Below, in pieces: positions 7,303 through 51,710 of a stretch of 54,441 nucleotides of DNA. Location of the stretch: assembly GCA_018920245.1 (NCBI GenBank), contig JAHLMS010000001.1, forward strand, positions 9,431 to 63,871, written 5' to 3'. Source of the stretch: Candidatus Aenigmatarchaeota archaeon (GTDB lineage: Archaea; Aenigmatarchaeota; Aenigmatarchaeia; Aenigmatarchaeales; JAHLMS01). Under the pieces are notes generated by a model. It was given only the letters and a program-made list of their open reading frames with translations, was not told where the DNA came from and did not search any database. The position numbers and the translations under genes are program-made. Positions within the stretch are counted from its first letter, which is position 1. The number at the start of each line of letters is the position of its first letter.

Positions 7303-7323
7303 GGGGTCATAGCAGGTATCAAA
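7303..7323 (-). other. 3' strand of the 23S rRNA processing stem
   Basis: The minus-strand UUUGAUACCUGCUAUGACCCC is complementary to GGGUCAAUAGCAGGUGUCAAA at 11374..11395. Confidence 0.7.
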
Positions 7324-7652
7324 AAGCATTGGCCATTGGGGGCTCCGAGCTGAACACGTCGCCGAAGCTTCGTGCTTACACCCGAGCTCCATCAAGCGGG
7401 TCGTCTAGCCCGCGGCCATCGCCTCTTTTTCCCGGACGGTTCGGGCTTAGTTCGGCGCACTGCTACAGCTAGGTTCCTTCTGAATGCTGTAGCTAGCGCT
7501 ATGCCTTCAGCCCTTACCGCGTATCGCGTAGCTGCCCGGCATTGCCTTTCGACAACCGGTCAACCAGTGGCGACGAACGCGCGTTCCTTTCGTACTTGCG
7601 CATTCTTCGGGTCAGGCGACTCGCACCCTCGGAAGATATAAACCATACTGTC

Positions 7653-7858
7653 TTTGTCGTCTCGCGTGGGCAAACACAAAGATACTTTACCGTAACGGGT
7701 ATCATGCTCTCATAGCTAGCCATAGCTAAAGCTCGGCATGTCATCATGGTTACGATGTGTGAAAACCGGTCATAAGGGGTTTAGTTGCTCATTGCAGCTT
7801 GCGCTGCTAGCATTACTTCAGATGTTTTCATCCCGGACCGAAGACGCCCACGTCAAGA
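7653..7858 (-). other. ORF-less intron of about 206 nt in 23S rRNA. Boundaries are accurate to a few nt.
   Basis: The conserved CGUCGUGA|GACAG (E. coli ~2593-2602) is split. The insert termini are complementary (GACGUGGGC...GCCCACGC), and the exon GUCGU pairs with the intron ACGAC. Confidence 0.7.
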
Positions 7859-8414
7859 TCACGACGTATTGAACCCAGCTAACGTCCCCCTTTAATCAGT
7901 AAACCCCTGCACCCTTGGCCGCTACTGCACGGCCAGGAGGGGGGGAGCCGACAGCGAGGTAGCAACGCGCGGGGTCGATAGGAGCTCTCGCCCGCCACGA
8001 CTCTGTTATCCCCGGGGTAGCTTTTCTGAAGTTACCGATATCCATCAAGGACGCTCGGCATATCGCTAGCTCATGCTTTCGCAGCTGGATGCCTTGCTGT
8101 GCAGCATCCAGTCAAGCCGGCTTTTGCGCTTGCACTCTACTCCAGATTTCTGACCTGGATGAGCCGACCTTAGAGCACTCTTGATCTCCTGTCAAGAGTG
8201 TACCGCCCCAGCCGAGCGGCCCACCAATCGGTGTCCCCCCGAGTCGAGGGTTAGCCATGCGCCCACGAGATGGCAGTGTTACATTGTCGAGTATCCAACA
8301 TCCGAAAATGTTGGCATGACCTCTCCTGCCTACGCTATGAAATCGCAAACACACAGCAACGACAGGCTGCCGCAGAGCTCCACGGGGTCTTCTCTTCCCA
8401 CCGAGGGTCAGTGG

Positions 8415-8458
8415 CCTTCTGGCGAACGGCTAGTGAAGCCAGAAGCTCGCGCTAGCCG
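8415..8458 (-). other. Possible micro-insertion or mini-intron of about 44 nt in 23S domain IV/V
   Basis: Extra sequence CGGCUAGCGCGAGCUUCUGGCUUCACUAGCCGUUCGCCAGAAGG sits between GGUGAAAAU and CCACUGACCC...GAAGACCCCGUGGAGC, compared with the archaeal consensus as I recall it. It contains two interleaved inverted repeats. Confidence 0.35.
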
Positions 8459-8570
8459 ATTTTCACCACTATAGCAGGTTCGCCAGGTTCCAGCCCGGGA
8501 CAGCGGGGAAGTCGTTAAGCCCTTCATGCGGGTCGCCAATTAAGCGACAAGGGATTACGCTACCTTAAGC

Positions 8571-9293
8571 TCACTGACTCGCATTACTGCGAGAGTCGGA
8601 CTTTATCATCACCCGTTTGTGGGTGTTCGACGTAAAGTCTCTGAGGAGCTGCTTGCTCTAATTCATTCATTATATCTTCCAATTTACGTCTTCTTTGTTT
8701 TCCGGCTAGATTCATTTCAAACGCAAGTTTGACCAAGCGTTTGAAGCCGCTGATGGTGTGATGTTCTTTGTTTTCCATTGCCAAGACGATTTCACGGAAA
8801 ATCCGAAAGTCATGCATCTTAGCAATCGGTGGATAACGCTCAAAGAAGTTTATAACCTTCTCTTTGAGCTGCCTGCGGTTATCGACAAGATAAACCAGCA
8901 GGTCTTTCTGTCCGGGCTTCTCGATTATTCTTCCGCAAGATAACACATCCAAAAACTTCTCTAAGATAATTCTGTTGTTCTTGTGCTGTGTAACTTGAAA
9001 GAGCGGATCGAGAACTACCCCGAATCTGGTACCTTTCTGGCGTTTTAACGCGACACTGAAGCAACCTTCAGCATCGGCAAAACCAAGCAAATACCAGCTC
9101 AAATTTCGCTTCTTGCTCAGAAGCTTTCTTGCGATTCTTTGCTCCATATTACTCACCTCTTTGTGAGCAAGCAGTTTCCTGCTGATTGCCCCACATTTGC
9201 GAGCGCGGATTTTTCCTTTCTCAGGACCGCGTGCTTCTTGGGTTCCCAGCATATTGTCGAATTTATTGACCGCCTTAAGTTCATTTTGAGCTA
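8571..9293 (-). mobile_element. 23S rRNA intron of about 723 nt carrying a LAGLIDADG homing endonuclease gene. Probably an archaeal bulge-helix-bulge type.
   Basis: The conserved H69/H71 junction is split into ...GGUAACUCUGACCGU | insert | CUUAAGGUAGCGUAAUCCC. The intron ends can pair (GCUCA/UGAGC). The ORF fills nearly the whole insert, leaving no room for a group I core. Confidence 0.8.
8584..9147 (-). CDS. LAGLIDADG homing endonuclease with a single motif (homodimer type)
   Basis: It has the motif YLLGFADAEGCF. The ATG at 9147 is preceded by GAGGTGA, although the ORF stays open to 9252. It lies entirely within the rRNA intron. Confidence 0.8.
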   Translation of the reverse strand: MEQRIARKLLSKKRNLSWYLLGFADAEGCFSVALKRQKGTRFGVVLDPLFQVTQHKNNRIILEKFLDVLSCGRIIEKPGQKDLLVYLVDNRRQLKEKVINFFERYPPIAKMHDFRIFREIVLAMENKEHHTISGFKRLVKLAFEMNLAGKQRRRKLEDIMNELEQAAPQRLYVEHPQTGDDKVRLSQ

Positions 9294-10443
9294 ACGGTCA
9301 GAGTTACCGCCGCCGTTTACCGGGGCTTGGGGCGATTGGAATCGCCTTTAACACACCGGCACTGGGCAGGCCTCACTGACTGTACAGAGCGTTTCCGCTT
9401 AGCAGTCAGCTGTGTTTTTGTTAAACAGTCGCTTCCCCCTTGTTAGTGACACCTGCGCACTTCTGCGCAGGCACCCCTTATACCGAAGATACGGGGCCAG
9501 ATTGCCGAGTTCCCTGGACTGGTGTCTCCTGACACGCCATTGCCTTTTCAGCAAGGGGCACGTGTGTCCGTTCTTGGTACGGGCACGGTGCGTCGTTCCC
9601 GCCTTCCTTTTCATGGTCTCTGGGAATTTTCCCAATTCCCGCTTGCGCAGAAACTATGCACGCATTCAGCTCCTTCTCTCCTTGACGGAACTCCGGAGCT
9701 TTCGGCGCTCAACTTACGTGGGAATATCCCAAAGCGTCGGAATGCGGGCTTGCGTTGCCGCAGCTAGCACCGTGGTCACGGAATATTAACCGTGTTCCCT
9801 TTCGCCAGCGTCAGTTAAGGGCTGGCTTAGGACCGACTGACTCCCGGCCCAAAAAAGTTGCCGGGAAACCCTTGCCCTTTAGGCGGAGAGGATTCCAACC
9901 TCTCTTTGCTGTTACTACCGGCAGGATTATCGATGCTGGCCGGTCCATCCCTGCTCACACAGAGACTTCTGCCCAACCAGCACGCCTTCCTACGCTATGG
10001 CTTTCGCCATCCCCGGTCTCGGCCCTGCACTTACCCCCGTCCATTTTGGCCGCACCGGCCCTCGAGAGGTCCGCTGTTACGCGTTGTTTGACGGATGGCT
10101 GCTTCTAAGCCTACCGCCCTCCTGTCTTGGGACCGGCACCAGCTTCGTGTATTAGTGCAGAGTTAGGGGCCTTAACCAGAGGCTAGTTTGTTCACTTTTC
10201 GGACACCGAGCTTACCCCAGTGCCCTCACTCCCGCGTTCTACGAGCCCGGCAGATTATGAGTTTGTCAGGGATGCCGCCGTTGTTGTGGCATAGGTCGCA
10301 GAGCGACCAAAAGGCGATTTTCGCTCGCCTATGCATTCACAGCTTAACACCCCAAACAGTGCTTTACCCCACCGGGACTCTCCCGCGAGGCTGTCCTGAG
10401 GGACATTTCGGAAGGAACCAGCTATCACCGCTCTCGATTGGCT

Positions 10444-10488
10444 TTTGATGACCAGCTCCGCTGTTCGACAAAGTCAGCAAAGCTGATT
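10444..10488 (-). other. Possible micro-insertion or mini-intron of about 44 nt in 23S domain II
   Basis: The conserved GGGGUGAAAGGCCAAUC is interrupted to read GGGGUGAAA[AUCAGCUUUGCUGACUUUGUCGAACAGCGGAGCUGGUCAUCAA]AAGCCAAUCGAG. Confidence 0.35.
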
Positions 10489-11373
10489 TTCACCCCTAAT
10501 CCCAGGTCACCCGAGTGATTCGCAGCTCAACACCGGTATCAGCCCTCCACGGGCCTTTCGGCCCGCTTCAGCTTGCCCAGGATTAGATCGAGCGGTTTCG
10601 GGTCTTGCGCCCGTGACTACCCGCCCTTTCAGACGGCGCCCCTGACGCCTTGCAGCGCTGCGGGCTTGTCGCTTTCGCTACGGTTACCTGCTTGCGCAGT
10701 TAGCCTCGCCACGAGCACAAACTCCCTGCCTCGTGTTTCGAAACGAACGTCATAACCCTGTAAACGGCCGCTCGTACACACTGCTTGCGCAGTTTTCCTT
10801 CGCGATCGCACCTTTCGGGCCATGACTGACTTTTACCAACTGGTTTCGGGGTCTTTTCACCTTCGGTGAGGAATACTTTTCAGCTTTCAGTCACCTTACT
10901 TAGTTCGCTATCGGACTCGCGAGATATTTAGGGTTGGCGGTTGATGCCCGCCGTCTTCCGCCTGCATATCCGAGCAGACGTACTCGATTCCTACAATCGA
11001 CCCTACGGTCTTCACTTACGGGGCTATCACCCTCTGCGGCGCGCCGTTCCAGGCTACTTCAGTTCGACCATCGGGCCGTGCGTAGGTTCCACATCTTCGG
11101 TGCATTACTGCACAGAATTCGGTTTGCCCTGTTCCGCTTTCGATCGCCTTTACTTACGGAATCACATTTGTTTTCTCTTCCTCCGCTTAATAAAATGCTT
11201 TAATTCAGCGGGTTCCCGCTCCTCACGGAGCACCGGCCGAAGCCGGTATGATGTCACATTCGGGAATGGCTGGTTCTAAGGCTGCATGCGCCTCGCCAGC
11301 CCTTTTCGCAGCTTGCTACGCCCTTCATCGGTCTCGCGAACCCAGCCGTCCACCAGCTGGTTTCAATTGCGTG

Positions 11374-11395
11374 TTTGACACCTGCTATTGACCCT
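11374..11395 (-). other. 5' strand of the 23S rRNA processing stem
   Basis: It is complementary to 7303..7323 (see that feature). Confidence 0.7.
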
Positions 11396-25233: not shown

Positions 25234-25482
25234 TTACAGGAGCGTTGCGGACTCAACAATGACATCGGCCACGCCTGGTATTGCCTTTATCTTGGCCTCA
25301 ATCTCTTCAGTACCCACGTCCTTCGCGACCACCAAGAGCTTTAGCGATTTGAGGCCGAATGCCAAAGGTTCGAGTTTTGCGTCCTTGATTTCGATACTCT
25401 TCGCAATATCAGCCTTGAGCCTGTTCATATCGACATCCGGGCTGTCTGGCATGACCTTGAGAGAAATTGCTACCATTCCCAC
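25234..25482 (-). CDS. Translation elongation factor aEF-1beta
   Basis: MGMVAISLKVMPDSPDVD...EPLAFGLKSL...VADVIVES is typical of aEF-1beta. Confidence 0.85.
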   Translation of the reverse strand: MGMVAISLKVMPDSPDVDMNRLKADIAKSIEIKDAKLEPLAFGLKSLKLLVVAKDVGTEEIEAKIKAIPGVADVIVESATLL

Positions 25483-25721: not shown

Positions 25722-25842
25722 GGCCCTCGTAGTCTAGCTTGGATAGGACATGAGGTTGCGGGCATTTTTTGCACTTTGCGCAAAACCTGCATTGAAAGGC
25801 AAAAACCTCAGGACCTGGGTTCGAATCCCAGCGAGGGCACCA
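25722..25842 (+). tRNA. tRNA-Arg(GCG) with an intron of about 44 nt at the canonical 37/38 position (about 25761..25804). CCA is encoded.
   Basis: The acceptor is GCCCUCG/CGAGGGC, the D arm GUCU/GGAC, the anticodon stem UGAGG/CCUCA with loop UUGCGG...A, and the T arm CUGGG-UUCGAAU-CCCAG. Confidence 0.75.
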
Positions 25843-36090: not shown

Positions 36091-36951
36091 TTATGACTCC
36101 TTTTTGATTTCTTTTCCCCAGAATATCCTGTTTGAGCGACCAGTTCGTTCCAATTTCACAAGACCGCGTTCACTCAAAGATTTTAAGACTTTTGATACCT
36201 TTGCCTTGGAGTAGCCGCTTTCCTTGACAATTATCTTCTGATTGACCCCGCTACCATGCTTGATTAGGCATTCAAGAATCGTTTTCTCATCTTTCTTCAG
36301 AACAGGAAGAATCATTTTCATTCCTTCCTTTGAGCTGGTGAAATAATATTTGTATGCGATGGCGCCGGCCGCAACGATTATTGCAATTATTGCGAGCAAT
36401 GTCGAAATGGCAGAAATCTCGAAGCGCTCATATGCGATCGAGCCCGTCCATTGTTCTTTTACATTGCTAGCTGACCAGCTTATCTGTATGTGCCTGCCGT
36501 CAGATGTTATTGAGGCACCCGAAGGCTCGATAGCATCCGTTACGGGTTCCTTGAGCGCTGCACCTGCCGGAAGTTTGACACGCACGCTGAGATTGCTGGC
36601 AGGCTGCGGCATTCTAAAAGTTTCCGACCAAATGAGCCAGCCTTCTTTTCGATGGATACTTGATTTGTATGTCACTATCAATTTGTTTATAACATCATCA
36701 CAAATTATGTTCGTCTGAAGCAATGCTTTGTCTATGCGACAAGTAGGTTCGACGTTAACATCCTGCGGCGTGCCAGGTATAGACATTATCAGATTTTTTA
36801 CAGGTTTCGTGAAAATCATTTCAATATTGGAGCTGGCAGTATCATCAGAAATGATAACATCGACGGAATAGCTGCTTATCTCAGCAGCTACAGGAATGGA
36901 TTGCAGTACCAGTGCTATAAACACCAGCACAGCCATTAATGCTATCCTCAT
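36091..36951 (-). CDS. Membrane-spanning protein with an extracytoplasmic domain and a C-terminal winged-helix DNA-binding domain
   Basis: It has a signal or TM at the N-terminus, a central TM (LLAIIAIIVAAGAIAY), and the C-terminal wHTH ILECLIKHGSGVNQKIIVKESGYSKAKVSKVLKSLSERGLV. Confidence 0.5.
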   Translation of the reverse strand: MRIALMAVLVFIALVLQSIPVAAEISSYSVDVIISDDTASSNIEMIFTKPVKNLIMSIPGTPQDVNVEPTCRIDKALLQTNIICDDVINKLIVTYKSSIHRKEGWLIWSETFRMPQPASNLSVRVKLPAGAALKEPVTDAIEPSGASITSDGRHIQISWSASNVKEQWTGSIAYERFEISAISTLLAIIAIIVAAGAIAYKYYFTSSKEGMKMILPVLKKDEKTILECLIKHGSGVNQKIIVKESGYSKAKVSKVLKSLSERGLVKLERTGRSNRIFWGKEIKKES

Positions 36952-37421
36952 TGTTCAGATCCCCGCACGAATATTATTCCACCAAGTCCGGCTGCAGCGA
37001 AATGATGCATCATTTGCGCTACACTGTTAAGAATATTCTGCGCTTCTCCAACATTTATAGTAAGTTTTGATGGCTCCAGCAATTCAACAGCCGAAGGTCC
37101 GTACTGCATCACGATTTGAACAAGGCTGTCGAAATCCTTTGTCACAAGCTCAACTTCTGCTGTCCCGGACCAGGCAATATCCACGCCTTTCAACGGCTTC
37201 TCGCGTTTCTCAAGAGTGCCAAATTCTTTCTTGTATAGTTTCACGCGCGCATCCTGATCGAGTTTATCTATAAGTTCGGACAGTGCTGCTCGCGTGACGT
37301 CCTCGTTGGCCGCCAATGCAGTAAACGCCAACCATGCGCGCAACCATCCTGAACTTATCTTCTCGTCTGCAACATCTTTGCTTATAATATTGGACACCTT
37401 GCAAATTGTATGTACGGGCAA
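36948..37421 (-). CDS. Hypothetical protein
   Basis: An ORF overlapping the next gene by 4 nt, with no motif recognised. Confidence 0.4.
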   Translation of the reverse strand: MPVHTICKVSNIISKDVADEKISSGWLRAWLAFTALAANEDVTRAALSELIDKLDQDARVKLYKKEFGTLEKREKPLKGVDIAWSGTAEVELVTKDFDSLVQIVMQYGPSAVELLEPSKLTINVGEAQNILNSVAQMMHHFAAAGLGGIIFVRGSEQ

Positions 37422-38494: not shown

Positions 38495-38603
38495 GCCTCG
38501 GTGGCTCAGTTGGTAGAGCGGTCGCCTCGTAGGGCATGACGGCCTTCGGCCGTCTGTTCATGTGAGCGACAGGTCGCGAGTTCGATTCTCGCCCGAGGCT
38601 CCA
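38495..38603 (+). tRNA. tRNA-Thr(CGU) with a 33-nt intron at 37/38 (about 38532..38564). CCA is encoded.
   Basis: The acceptor is GCCUCGG/CCGAGGC with U73, the D arm GCUC/GAGC, the anticodon stem GUCGC/GCGAC with loop CUCGUA...A, and the T arm GCGAG-UUCGAUU-CUCGC. The intron core hairpin is GACGGCCUUCGGCCGUC. Confidence 0.8.
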
Positions 38604-38643
38604 TAACCTTAAGCTATCGTGATAAAATCTGGAGAGTGAGAAA

Positions 38644-38952
38644 ATGGCAGAATTCATTTGCTTCGTGAAAAGGGAAAATGCGCGCAAGGCTGAGGATATG
38701 CTTCGTGCGGACTTCGATGTCGCTGCAAAGCAGTCGATAACCGTAAGGGATGCATCCGCGCTCGGCATCAAGGAGGCTGGAGATGGCAGCTTCTTTTACA
38801 TAACAGGCAGCGATGAAGGCGTAAAAAAATGTCAGGAGCTTATCAAGGATTTTGTGGTAGCAACTGAAAAACAGCTGCTGGACAAGGCTAAGACAAAAAT
38901 CATCGAGGAACAGGAAGCAGCGGCAGCAGGGTTCGGTGGAATTTTCGGGTGA
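38644..38952 (+). CDS. Hypothetical 102-aa protein with a ribosomal P-stalk-like C-terminal tail
   Basis: The C-terminus ...IIEEQEAAAAGFGGIFG* resembles the aP1/P0 tail (...EEALAGLGALFG). The N-terminal ~80 aa do not resemble P1. Confidence 0.5.
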   Translation: MAEFICFVKRENARKAEDMLRADFDVAAKQSITVRDASALGIKEAGDGSFFYITGSDEGVKKCQELIKDFVVATEKQLLDKAKTKIIEEQEAAAAGFGGIFG

Positions 38953-38958
38953 TACATT

Positions 38959-39318
38959 ATGGCGACAACGATGGCTGTCTATACTACTGGCGCTATGCCA
39001 ATTTACATACAGAAGATGACTCAGTGGACACGCGACAACTGGAACTATGCAGGCACATACACAGACGTGAAAAGGCTACTGGACGATGCTAAGAACAAAA
39101 AGTTTGCCTATGTCCTTGTGTACTCATTTGGTGTGCTTGAACCTGATGTGATGAGCAACCTGGCAGCACTTGGTGTAAAGGTGTTGGCATTCAAAGAACA
39201 ACAGAAGCTCGAAGAGGAACTAAAGAACGCAAAGATATCGGATGCGCGGAGCGTTTCTGTCCGTATAAACCAGAACAGCGATTACGTTGAAATTAAAATA
39301 CCTCCGAAACAAAAATAG
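38959..39318 (+). CDS. Hypothetical protein
   Basis: An ORF 6 nt after the previous stop, with no motif recognised. Confidence 0.4.
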   Translation: MATTMAVYTTGAMPIYIQKMTQWTRDNWNYAGTYTDVKRLLDDAKNKKFAYVLVYSFGVLEPDVMSNLAALGVKVLAFKEQQKLEEELKNAKISDARSVSVRINQNSDYVEIKIPPKQK

Positions 39319-39322
39319 TTCT

Positions 39323-39470
39323 GCGCCCGTAGTCTAGCGGTAACCGACGGCCAAAGGCCGTCTATGCCGTATGGATCTGAGCTTCCCAAGAACCCTTTTG
39401 TTCCGCAAAAGCGTTCACGGAAAAACGGAAAAAGCTCGTGACGCGGGTTCGAATCCCGCCGGGCGCACCA
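39323..39470 (+). tRNA. tRNA-Gly(CCC) with two introns: about 30 nt in the D-loop (about 39343..39372) and about 44 nt at 37/38 (about 39389..39432). CCA is encoded.
   Basis: The acceptor is GCGCCCG/CGGGCGC, the D stem GUCU/GGAU split by an insert containing GACGGCCAAAGGCCGUC, the anticodon stem UGAGC/GCUCG with loop UUCCCA...A, and the T arm GCGGG-UUCGAAU-CCCGC. The mature length sums to 74 nt. Confidence 0.7.
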
Positions 39471-40138: not shown

Positions 40139-40248
40139 GGGCCGGTGGTCTAGTGGTAAGGCATTGATGATGCTTCGCATCATCATCCCATATTGACGTC
40201 ACCCTGACACGGTGGAGGTCGAGAGTTCGAATCTCTCCCGGCCCACCA
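40139..40248 (+). tRNA. tRNA-Val(GAC) with a single intron of about 35 nt in the D-loop (about 40159..40193) and an uninterrupted anticodon loop. CCA is encoded.
   Basis: The acceptor is GGGCCGG/CCGGCCC, the anticodon stem-loop is UCACC-CUGACAC-GGUGG, and the T arm is GAGAG-UUCGAAU-CUCUC. The D region is split by an insert with the hairpin GAUGAUGCUUCGCAUCAUC. Confidence 0.7.
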
Positions 40249-50785: not shown

Positions 50786-50927
50786 TGGTGGACCGGGCGG
50801 GATTCGAACCCGCGAACTCTACCAGACGGGGCAGAAACGACCTTCAGTCGTCATTCTGTTTGCCAAGGTAGCGTCAGTGCAGCAAGACAGCCTTAGGCCG
50901 TCATTCGTTTCCACTAGACCACCGGCC
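50786..50927 (-). tRNA. tRNA-Ala(GGC) with two introns: about 30 nt in the D-loop and about 36 nt at 37/38. CCA is encoded.
   Basis: The acceptor GGGCCGG/CCGGUCC carries the Ala identity pair G3:U70. The anticodon stem is CUACC/GGUAG with loop UUGGCA..., and the T arm is GCGGG-UUCGAAU-CCCGC. The intron hairpins are GACGGCCUAAGGCUGUC and CAGAAUGACGACUGAAGGUCGUUUCUG. Confidence 0.7.
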
Positions 50928-50962
50928 CGTGAACGAATTGTTTTCGCAGAATATTTAAATGC

Positions 50963-51070
50963 TGGTGGGCCGGGCAAGATTCGAACTTGCGATATCCACC
51001 TTTCAAGGCAATGACGTGCTTTGCACGTCTACCTGTAAGGGTGGCGTCTTAACCGCTGGACCACCGGCCC
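50963..51070 (-). tRNA. tRNA-Val(UAC) with an intron of about 32 nt at 37/38. CCA is encoded.
   Basis: The acceptor is GGGCCGG/CCGGCCC, the anticodon stem is CCACC/GGUGG with loop CUUACA..., and the T arm is GCAAG-UUCGAAU-CUUGC. The intron hairpin is GACGUGCAAAGCACGUC. Confidence 0.75.
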
Positions 51071-51581: not shown

Positions 51582-51710
51582 TGGTGGGCCGGAAGAGATT
51601 TGAACTCTTGACCACCAGTGTTTACACTTTTTGGAACGTTGTCGGACTGACGACCGCCGGTCGTCCAGTTTTATAAGACTGGCGCTCCAACCTGGCTGAG
51701 CTACCGGCCC
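51582..51710 (-). tRNA. tRNA-Ile(UAU) with an intron of about 51 nt at or near 37/38. CCA is encoded.
   Basis: The acceptor is GGGCCGG/CCGGCCC with A73, and the D arm is GCUC/GAGC. The anticodon stem CCAGU...ACUGG has loop CUUAUA (anticodon at plus coordinates 51673..51675). The T arm is AAGAG-UUCAAAU-CUCUU, and the intron hairpin is GACGACCGGCGGUCGUC. Confidence 0.7.

Follow-up and report, generated by a model that had tools for sequence, protein, structure and literature searches.

The stretch of DNA analysed here (the window, 54,441 nucleotides) belongs to an archaeal genome represented by a 515-kb assembly of 25 contigs that is about 89% complete. On its forward strand lies a gene for a small protein, called STP here, which occupies positions 38644..38952 with the stop codon included, starts with ATG and encodes 102 aa ending in ...KIIEEQEAAAAGFGGIFG, as read from the list of open reading frames and their translations. 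The frame is a real gene, since a word-indexed search finds 49 close homologues (96-114 aa) of equal length that are free of stop codons and share 56-87% identity; about 330 more distant homologues are added by other searches. A putative Shine-Dalgarno-like sequence, GGAGAGTGA (38631-38639, +), can be read 5-13 nt 5' of the ATG. The product is acidic (pI ~5) and is divided, on the basis of its AF2 model and of alignments, into a compact alpha/beta domain (residues 1-75; 38644..38868, +), the first part of a helix linking this domain to the tail (residues 76-87; 38869..38904, +; the helix spans residues 76-94 in the AF2 model) and a C-terminal tail, EEQEAAAAGFGGIFG (residues 88-102; 38905..38949, +), composed of an acidic run and a hydrophobic end of the ribosomal stalk type.

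The gene is flanked by intron-bearing tRNA genes. One of them (38495-38600, +; Rfam RF00005, 58.2 bits) ends 43 nt upstream of the STP gene and has CGT in its anticodon region, which, read by eye, assigns it to Thr. The others lie at 39323-39467 (+; Rfam, 38.6 bits, above the gathering score) and 40139-40245 (Rfam). A sequence-only reading of this DNA had placed the gene among tRNA genes and away from that of the stalk protein P0, and both points are borne out: STP is encoded between tRNA genes on contig C11, and P0 and P1 are encoded on contig C18. The tRNA at 39323-39467 contains two large inserts, one in the D region (31 nt) and one in the anticodon region (47 nt), and was missed by the Rfam run on the whole window as well as by ARAGORN, which reported no tRNA on the whole window. 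The six tRNAs of the whole-window Rfam run (25723-25839, 38495-38600, 40139-40245, 50789-50928, 50966-51070 and 51585-51710) are 105-140 nt long, which indicates the presence of introns.

Directly 3' of the STP gene is a small basic ORF (38971..39318, +, with an alternative ATG at 38959), which is probably co-transcribed with it. In at least six related loci a tblastn search finds this ORF 0-70 nt 3' of the STP gene, and it is kept in part of the phylum. Its core of about 85 aa starts with MA(I/V)(F/Y)T.GA and has a predicted fold resembling the catalytic domain of serine recombinases (AF2 and Foldseek; E 6e-4 to the N-domain of the TP901-1 integrase); a DNA-binding domain is absent and Thr takes the place of the nucleophile Ser motif. 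The divergent neighbours of STP in Aenigmatarchaeota loci form a conserved trio consisting of a radical-SAM enzyme, an MJ0538-like protein and a DUF7343 regulator, and the neighbours in Thermoplasmatota loci are different ones. Neither the neighbourhood of STP in the window nor those of the related loci of both phyla reveal a link to translation or indicate a function. A second protein of the window, of 157 aa (36948-37421, -), ends in ...HHFAAAGLGGIIFVRGSEQ and contains AAAGLGGIIF close to its end. It was rejected as a carrier of a stalk tail: in its homologues the corresponding motif is internal (FAAAG.GG.VFV.GK) and there is no acidic run. A homologue adjoining STP in the related locus L019 is annotated as MJ0538 (PF27325), a Pfam match that the window copy lacks.

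The sequence-only reading had described a small orphan protein with a stalk-like tail. The description of the tail stands; "orphan" does not, as homologues are found in several searches. An exhaustive search of 1.8 billion representative sequences returns 84 of them and a search with the family profile returns 377 clusters. In the searches for close homologues and related loci, all named relatives are Aenigmatarchaeota except for one record deposited as "Nanoarchaeota archaeon". Within Aenigmatarchaeota, the GTDB phylum of the genome itself, 229 of the 301 sampled genomes have a profile match, as do 85 of the 98 good-quality ones, almost always with one copy per genome. STP is thus a near-universal single-copy core gene of the very small genomes of this phylum. 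Named distant members belong to Thermoplasmata, Thermoplasmatales and Methanomassiliicoccales, and profile matches occur in 40 of 71 sampled Thermoplasmatota genomes. Structural look-alikes in the Atlas point to Micrarchaeota as well, as a lead only. When 70 diverse members were compared with Pfam and NCBIfam, no family was matched, and neither the single protein nor the 70-member profile matched any sequence of the PDB. STP is therefore a conserved, unnamed archaeal family.

The stalk tail serves archaeal and eukaryotic ribosomes as the one handle for aEF1A, aEF2, aIF5B and ABCE1. To our knowledge it has so far been described solely on stalk proteins. The likeness of the STP tail to it can be measured. 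Compared with EEAAAGLGALFG, the tail of the P1 protein of the same genome (which ends in ...KKAEEAAAGLGALFG), it shows both the acidic linker and the hydrophobic C-terminal peptide, and the family profile aligns to this P1 over the last 13 residues only, with 62% identity. Searched without mismatches across all 515 kb of the assembly, a degenerate DNA pattern of the tail finds only the STP gene and P1, and the reversed pattern, used as a control, gave 0 and 1 matches. Moreover, no other part of the protein is as well conserved as the tail, both among the 49 close homologues and among 70 distant members, so the possibility, raised in the sequence-only reading, that the tail might not be conserved does not hold. 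The close homologues show no variation at A93, G96, G98, I100 and F101, and A93, G96, G98 and F101 are conserved in at least 90% of the distant ones.

As in aP1 and aP0, an acidic run is followed, in the same register, by G-x-G-x-hydrophobic-F-G, and F97, I100, F101 and G102 of STP fall in register with the key C-terminal residues of aP1. In aP1 of Pyrococcus horikoshii the substitutions L103S, L106S and F107S abolish aEF1A binding, the same three residues serve for aEF2, and G108 forms a salt bridge through its C-terminal carboxylate (PMC4267659); aP1 without its last three residues, L106-F107-G108, no longer binds (PMC6791870). The complex of the aP1 tail with aEF1A-GDP has been solved (PDB 3WY9; PMC4267659), and interactions of stalk tails have also been described with aEF2 (PMC5887453) and ABCE1 (PMC6125642). 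The STP family does not reproduce the stalk sequence exactly. Of 238 family tails, 233 have F, V or M at the position equivalent to L103, versus L in all 42 P0 tails compared, and the position equivalent to L106 is I in 209 of the 238 versus L in 40 of the 42. The family pattern is thus G[F/V/M]GxIFG versus GL[G/S]xLFG for the stalk, with F/V/M, I/L/V and F as the family-wide residues at the three key positions. The final Gly is terminal in 134 of 238 tails, and most of the others have 1-2 residues after it. The consistency of the F/V/M and I variant implies that the STP tail is under selection of its own and is not a drifting copy. Judged from sequence, such a private variant hints that affinity may be altered or that the set of clients may be narrower.

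It had also been suggested that STP could be a highly divergent stalk protein. This suggestion does not survive the search for canonical P0 and P1 genes, which are adjacent to each other on a different contig of the same genome (C18), and STP is not a ribosomal stalk protein. There are resemblances to P1: STP is small and acidic, of similar length (102 aa versus 97-105 aa), with a flexible tether before a tail of the same type that retains all three key hydrophobic positions. However, as the sequence-only reading had held, the body is not the P1 dimerisation domain. PF00428 (Ribosomal_60s), which scores 50.4 bits on the real P1 of the genome, gives no match on STP. The hhalign comparison of the family profile with this P1 covers only residues 90-102 of STP, that is, the tail, and the AF2 model of the body has an alpha/beta fold in the order beta-alpha-beta-beta-alpha-beta, whereas the stalk P1 has a helical N-terminal dimerisation domain. 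The STP tail differs in addition by its fixed F/V/M and I at the two stalk Leu positions, and the STP gene lies outside the L11-L1-P0-P1 cluster; in the related loci, too, no ribosomal-protein cluster was found. With a normal P1 encoded in the genome, the idea that STP is a strongly diverged P1 paralogue which still dimerises on P0 is very improbable and close to refuted.

The AF2 model (mean pLDDT 85) comprises strand b1 (residues 2-9), helix a1 (10-22), strands b2 (31-36) and b3 (48-55), helix a2 (57-67), a short b4 (71-72), the long helix 76-94 and a low-confidence tip. It suggests that the body is KH-like, a small alpha/beta domain devoid of the GXXG loop. The order of strands and helices fits a type I KH domain (PF00013), and VIA-align superposes STP on the KH domains of Nova, FBP, PCBP2, hnRNP K and N4BP1 over 60-70 residues (Z 5-6, rmsd 2.6-3.0 over 64-69 residues), although Z values below 8 are common for unrelated small alpha/beta folds. 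The beta-strand-G-S-x-E-helix segment yields faint KH matches in Pfam, all of them sub-threshold: KH_1 scores 11.7 bits on STP (E 0.23, below the cut-off of 21.5), and faint KH matches appear in 2 of the 70 members. However, residues 23-26 of STP are D-F-D-V instead of GXXG (the family consensus here is D-D-x-x-S-R-Q-S), so that an acidic D-x-D occupies the GXXG position, and the helix after it is vestigial. PII-like and ACT folds, moreover, match about equally well. For the PII-like fold (PF00543, PF06153), TM values of 0.45-0.58 over 65-80 residues are obtained with GlnK, PstA and SbtB (Foldseek, Atlas), and no sequence signal of these families is found in STP or the 70 members with Pfam and NCBIfam. 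Foldseek of the model against the PDB gave no match at E <= 0.001. From the model, then, the fold could not be assigned with confidence to any named family.

Two motifs of the N-domain, D-x-D..(K/R)QSI..RDA and GS(D/E)E, are kept across both phyla. In the relatives P0227, P0145 and P0171, 20-60 extra residues separate the domain from the pre-tail helix. Among the metagenomic relatives P0120, P0102 and P0129, two have two N-domains in tandem and a single tail, and one has an insert of about 390 aa with a LAGLIDADG_3 domain directly before the GS(D/E)E motif; this insert is an intein.

One alpha/beta protein that acts on aEF1A was considered as a possible origin of STP. The exchange domain of aEF1B (eEF1B-alpha, PF00736) is of similar size (~90 aa), is an alpha/beta sandwich and shares with STP aEF1A as the proposed partner. 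The contact modelled for STP is nevertheless the cleft separating domains 1 and 3 of aEF1A and not the nucleotide pocket. A diverged aEF1B was rejected: the hhalign probability to PF00736 (EF1_GNE) is 1.2%, and a normal aEF1B gene is present elsewhere in the window (25234-25482, -; 56 bits).

The contact with aEF1A was modelled using the aEF1A of the same genome (423 aa, TIGR00483, 713 bits; 28-row alignment) and STP (49-row alignment). The score is 0.64, the median of three runs (0.75, 0.64 and 0.62), and the best of three controls scores 0.00. Of 80 solved complexes 58 reach the pass mark, as do 2 of 110 mismatched pairs, figures that are approximate here because our own alignments were used. 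The runs share at least 92% of their contacts, and the pLDDT of the partner is at least 88. In the model the tail of STP lies in the cleft separating domains 1 and 3 of aEF1A, the site used by aP1. On the STP side the main contact is made by residues 89-102, with residues 29-36, 39, 49 and 54-56 added by the N-domain; on the aEF1A side the interface comprises residues 15-17, 119-135 and 168-173 of domain 1 and residues 321-330, 359-360, 373-377, 401 and 413-415 of domain 3. Alignment to 3WY9_A shows that the contacts K127, F131, K134 and residue 168 correspond exactly to K125, F129, R132 and L166 of that solved complex. The modelled domain-3 contacts lie 3-5 residues off the equivalents of 3WY9 K324, L359, A360, I384 and S423, and K324 is T319 in the aEF1A of this genome. 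As a similar complex, 3WY9, has already been solved, the pass may reflect memorisation by the predictor; the model shows a likeness, not binding. The contacts of the N-domain would be a new element with respect to the solved aP1 complex. The residues that make them coincide with the family motifs, and their mean conservation is 0.54 versus 0.43 for the rest, a marginal difference (one-sided p 0.045).

The P0 protein of the genome (297 aa; L001:545-1438, contig C18) stops after the spine helices, at ...LNAQIKI, and has neither linker nor tail. The same is true of a Methanomassiliicoccales genome with STP, whose P0 likewise ends after the spine helices. For 64 Thermoplasmatota genomes the P0 frame holding the Pfam match was read. 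Among those with STP, P0 is tail-less in 20 and tailed in 14, with one further frame cut by the end of a contig. Among those without STP it is tail-less in 1 and tailed in 29, including G330, whose P0 ends in GLNALFG and was missed by the pattern. STP is thus carried by 20 of the 21 Thermoplasmatota genomes with a tail-less P0. Fisher's test gives p ~1e-5 for the association of STP with the state of the P0 tail, uncorrected for kinship and with G330 not yet counted as tailed. On a weakly resolved P0 tree the state of the tail changes at least nine times and the presence of STP at least 11 times; a test of independent pairs on this tree did not reach significance, with too few supported pairs.

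A strict rule by which STP compensates for the loss of the P0 tail was rejected. In family f21 of the Aenigmatarchaeota, P0 is tail-less in all 20 genomes examined (loci L046-L065) and STP is mostly absent, being found in 2 of 35 genomes; one of these two carriers, G080, is among the 20. In five f21 genomes without STP, the sole matches of the tail pattern were P1 and chance sites. An archaeon with a tail-less P0 can therefore live without STP. The pattern as a whole fits, and does not prove, loss of the P0 tail in backgrounds that carried STP, with STP itself losable later. Among the tail-less P0 copies of these 20 genomes and the genome studied here, some have long extensions rich in Lys and Glu at their end. 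The tail of P1 is kept in all 21 loci in which the P1 gene was read. The only sampled Thermoplasmatota genome devoid of both STP and the P0 tail (G306, locus L164) has a P0 with an acidic end, ...EKVEEEA, and the P0 of G344 (L137), of 395 aa, has a long acidic extension from which the hydrophobic end is absent.

The sequence-only reading had also considered a free factor which recruits or titrates translational GTPases. This is the best reading of the data, in view of the conservation of the tail, the aEF1A model and the co-occurrence with loss of the P0 tail; recruitment and titration are indistinguishable on this evidence. In more specific terms, STP may be a soluble adaptor which grips aEF1A, and perhaps other clients of the stalk tail, in a role overlapping that of the P0 tail. 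This proposal appears to us evenly balanced between right and wrong. STP would combine three elements: the small alpha/beta domain of KH-like type, a helical tether whose length varies, and its own variant of the factor-docking peptide of the stalk. It would most likely bind aEF1A off the stalk, and possibly aEF2, aIF5B and ABCE1. Its C-terminal helix would rest in the cleft separating domains 1 and 3 of aEF1A in the manner of the aP1 tail, and the N-domain would touch domain 3 in addition through its conserved face (KQSITVRD, GS). The role could be that of holding aEF1A, or handing it over, near or between ribosomes, in overlap with the P0 tail. Such an overlap would explain why the P0 tail has been lost mainly in lineages that bear STP.

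The same observations can be read in other ways. In particular, STP could be a detachable element of the stalk, anchored to the ribosome by its N-domain (through P0, uL11 or the stalk base) and standing in, in trans, for the lost tail of P0; it would then be a new ribosome-associated protein and not a free factor. The end of P0 after the spine helices, without linker or tail, in the genome studied here, the same state in the Methanomassiliicoccales genome carrying STP and the presence of STP in 20 of 21 tail-less-P0 genomes of the Thermoplasmatota sample are all in its favour, and the succession of domain, variable tether and tail is the layout of a stalk protein. On the other hand, STP is acidic and shows no sign of contact with rRNA or P0, its N-domain is unlike that of P1, and its gene is never found in the L11-L1-P0-P1 cluster in the loci examined. 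Moreover, STP and a tailed P0 coexist in 14 genomes, family f21 combines a tail-less P0 with the absence of STP, and the model sets the conserved face of the N-domain on aEF1A. We regard this possibility as unlikely. An inhibitory role is improbable: STP would in this case be a competitive decoy occupying the stalk-binding sites of aEF1A or aEF2 and damping translation, for example during starvation or in dependence on a host. It rests on the same evidence as the proposed aEF1A adaptor, namely the complex model, the aP1 mutants and the tail variant. As can be deduced from the aP1 work (PMC4267659), a free tail peptide and the stalk should be competitors for one and the same cleft, and the private variant could exceed P1 in affinity. 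However, a constitutive inhibitor would be odd as a near-universal single-copy core gene of tiny genomes, the preferential loss of the P0 tail where STP is present would stay unexplained, and no regulatory context is seen at the STP loci.

It is also conceivable, with a distinctly low probability, that the partner of the tail lies outside translation or is the domain of STP itself, the likeness to the stalk being convergent. The tail is indeed a consistent variant and not a copy of the stalk tail, and the neighbouring genes (the radical SAM enzyme, the MJ0538-like protein, the DUF7343 regulator and the resolvase-like ORF) are not translation genes. Convergence would nevertheless have to produce an acidic run and a terminal G-hydrophobic-G-x-hydrophobic-F-G in the exact register of aP1. 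The controls of the complex model score 0.00, including that in which STP was kept and aEF1A replaced, and the statistical link to the state of the P0 tail would be hard to account for.

The proposed soluble adaptor can be taken one step further. STP would then be a dedicated escort of aEF1A which acts as an extra, detachable stalk tail in trans, so that the tail of P0 became dispensable and was lost repeatedly in at least two archaeal phyla. This extension is offered tentatively and is rather doubtful. If it were true, part of the factor recruitment carried out by the stalk would have been transferred from the ribosome to a soluble protein. STP is a conserved and unannotated carrier of its own version of the stalk handle on an unrelated domain. 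It matters as a core gene of very small genomes whose presence goes along with loss of the P0 tail, and factor traffic would gain a new participant. In lineages with STP, nature offers a setting in which to ask why so many tails are needed on the stalk. The literature searched holds no paper with STP tail sequences and none on a free carrier of a stalk tail; the motif is of a known kind and, as far as this literature goes, neither the protein that carries it nor its variant form nor the association with P0 tail loss has been described.

Elsewhere in the window, the 23S rRNA match (7319-11377, -) spans 4059 nt versus 2987 nt for the model, and an ORF inside it (8584-9252, -) encodes a LAGLIDADG_1 endonuclease of 222 aa (E 1e-16). 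The length of the match and the internal ORF together show that the rRNA gene has at least one intron carrying a homing endonuclease.
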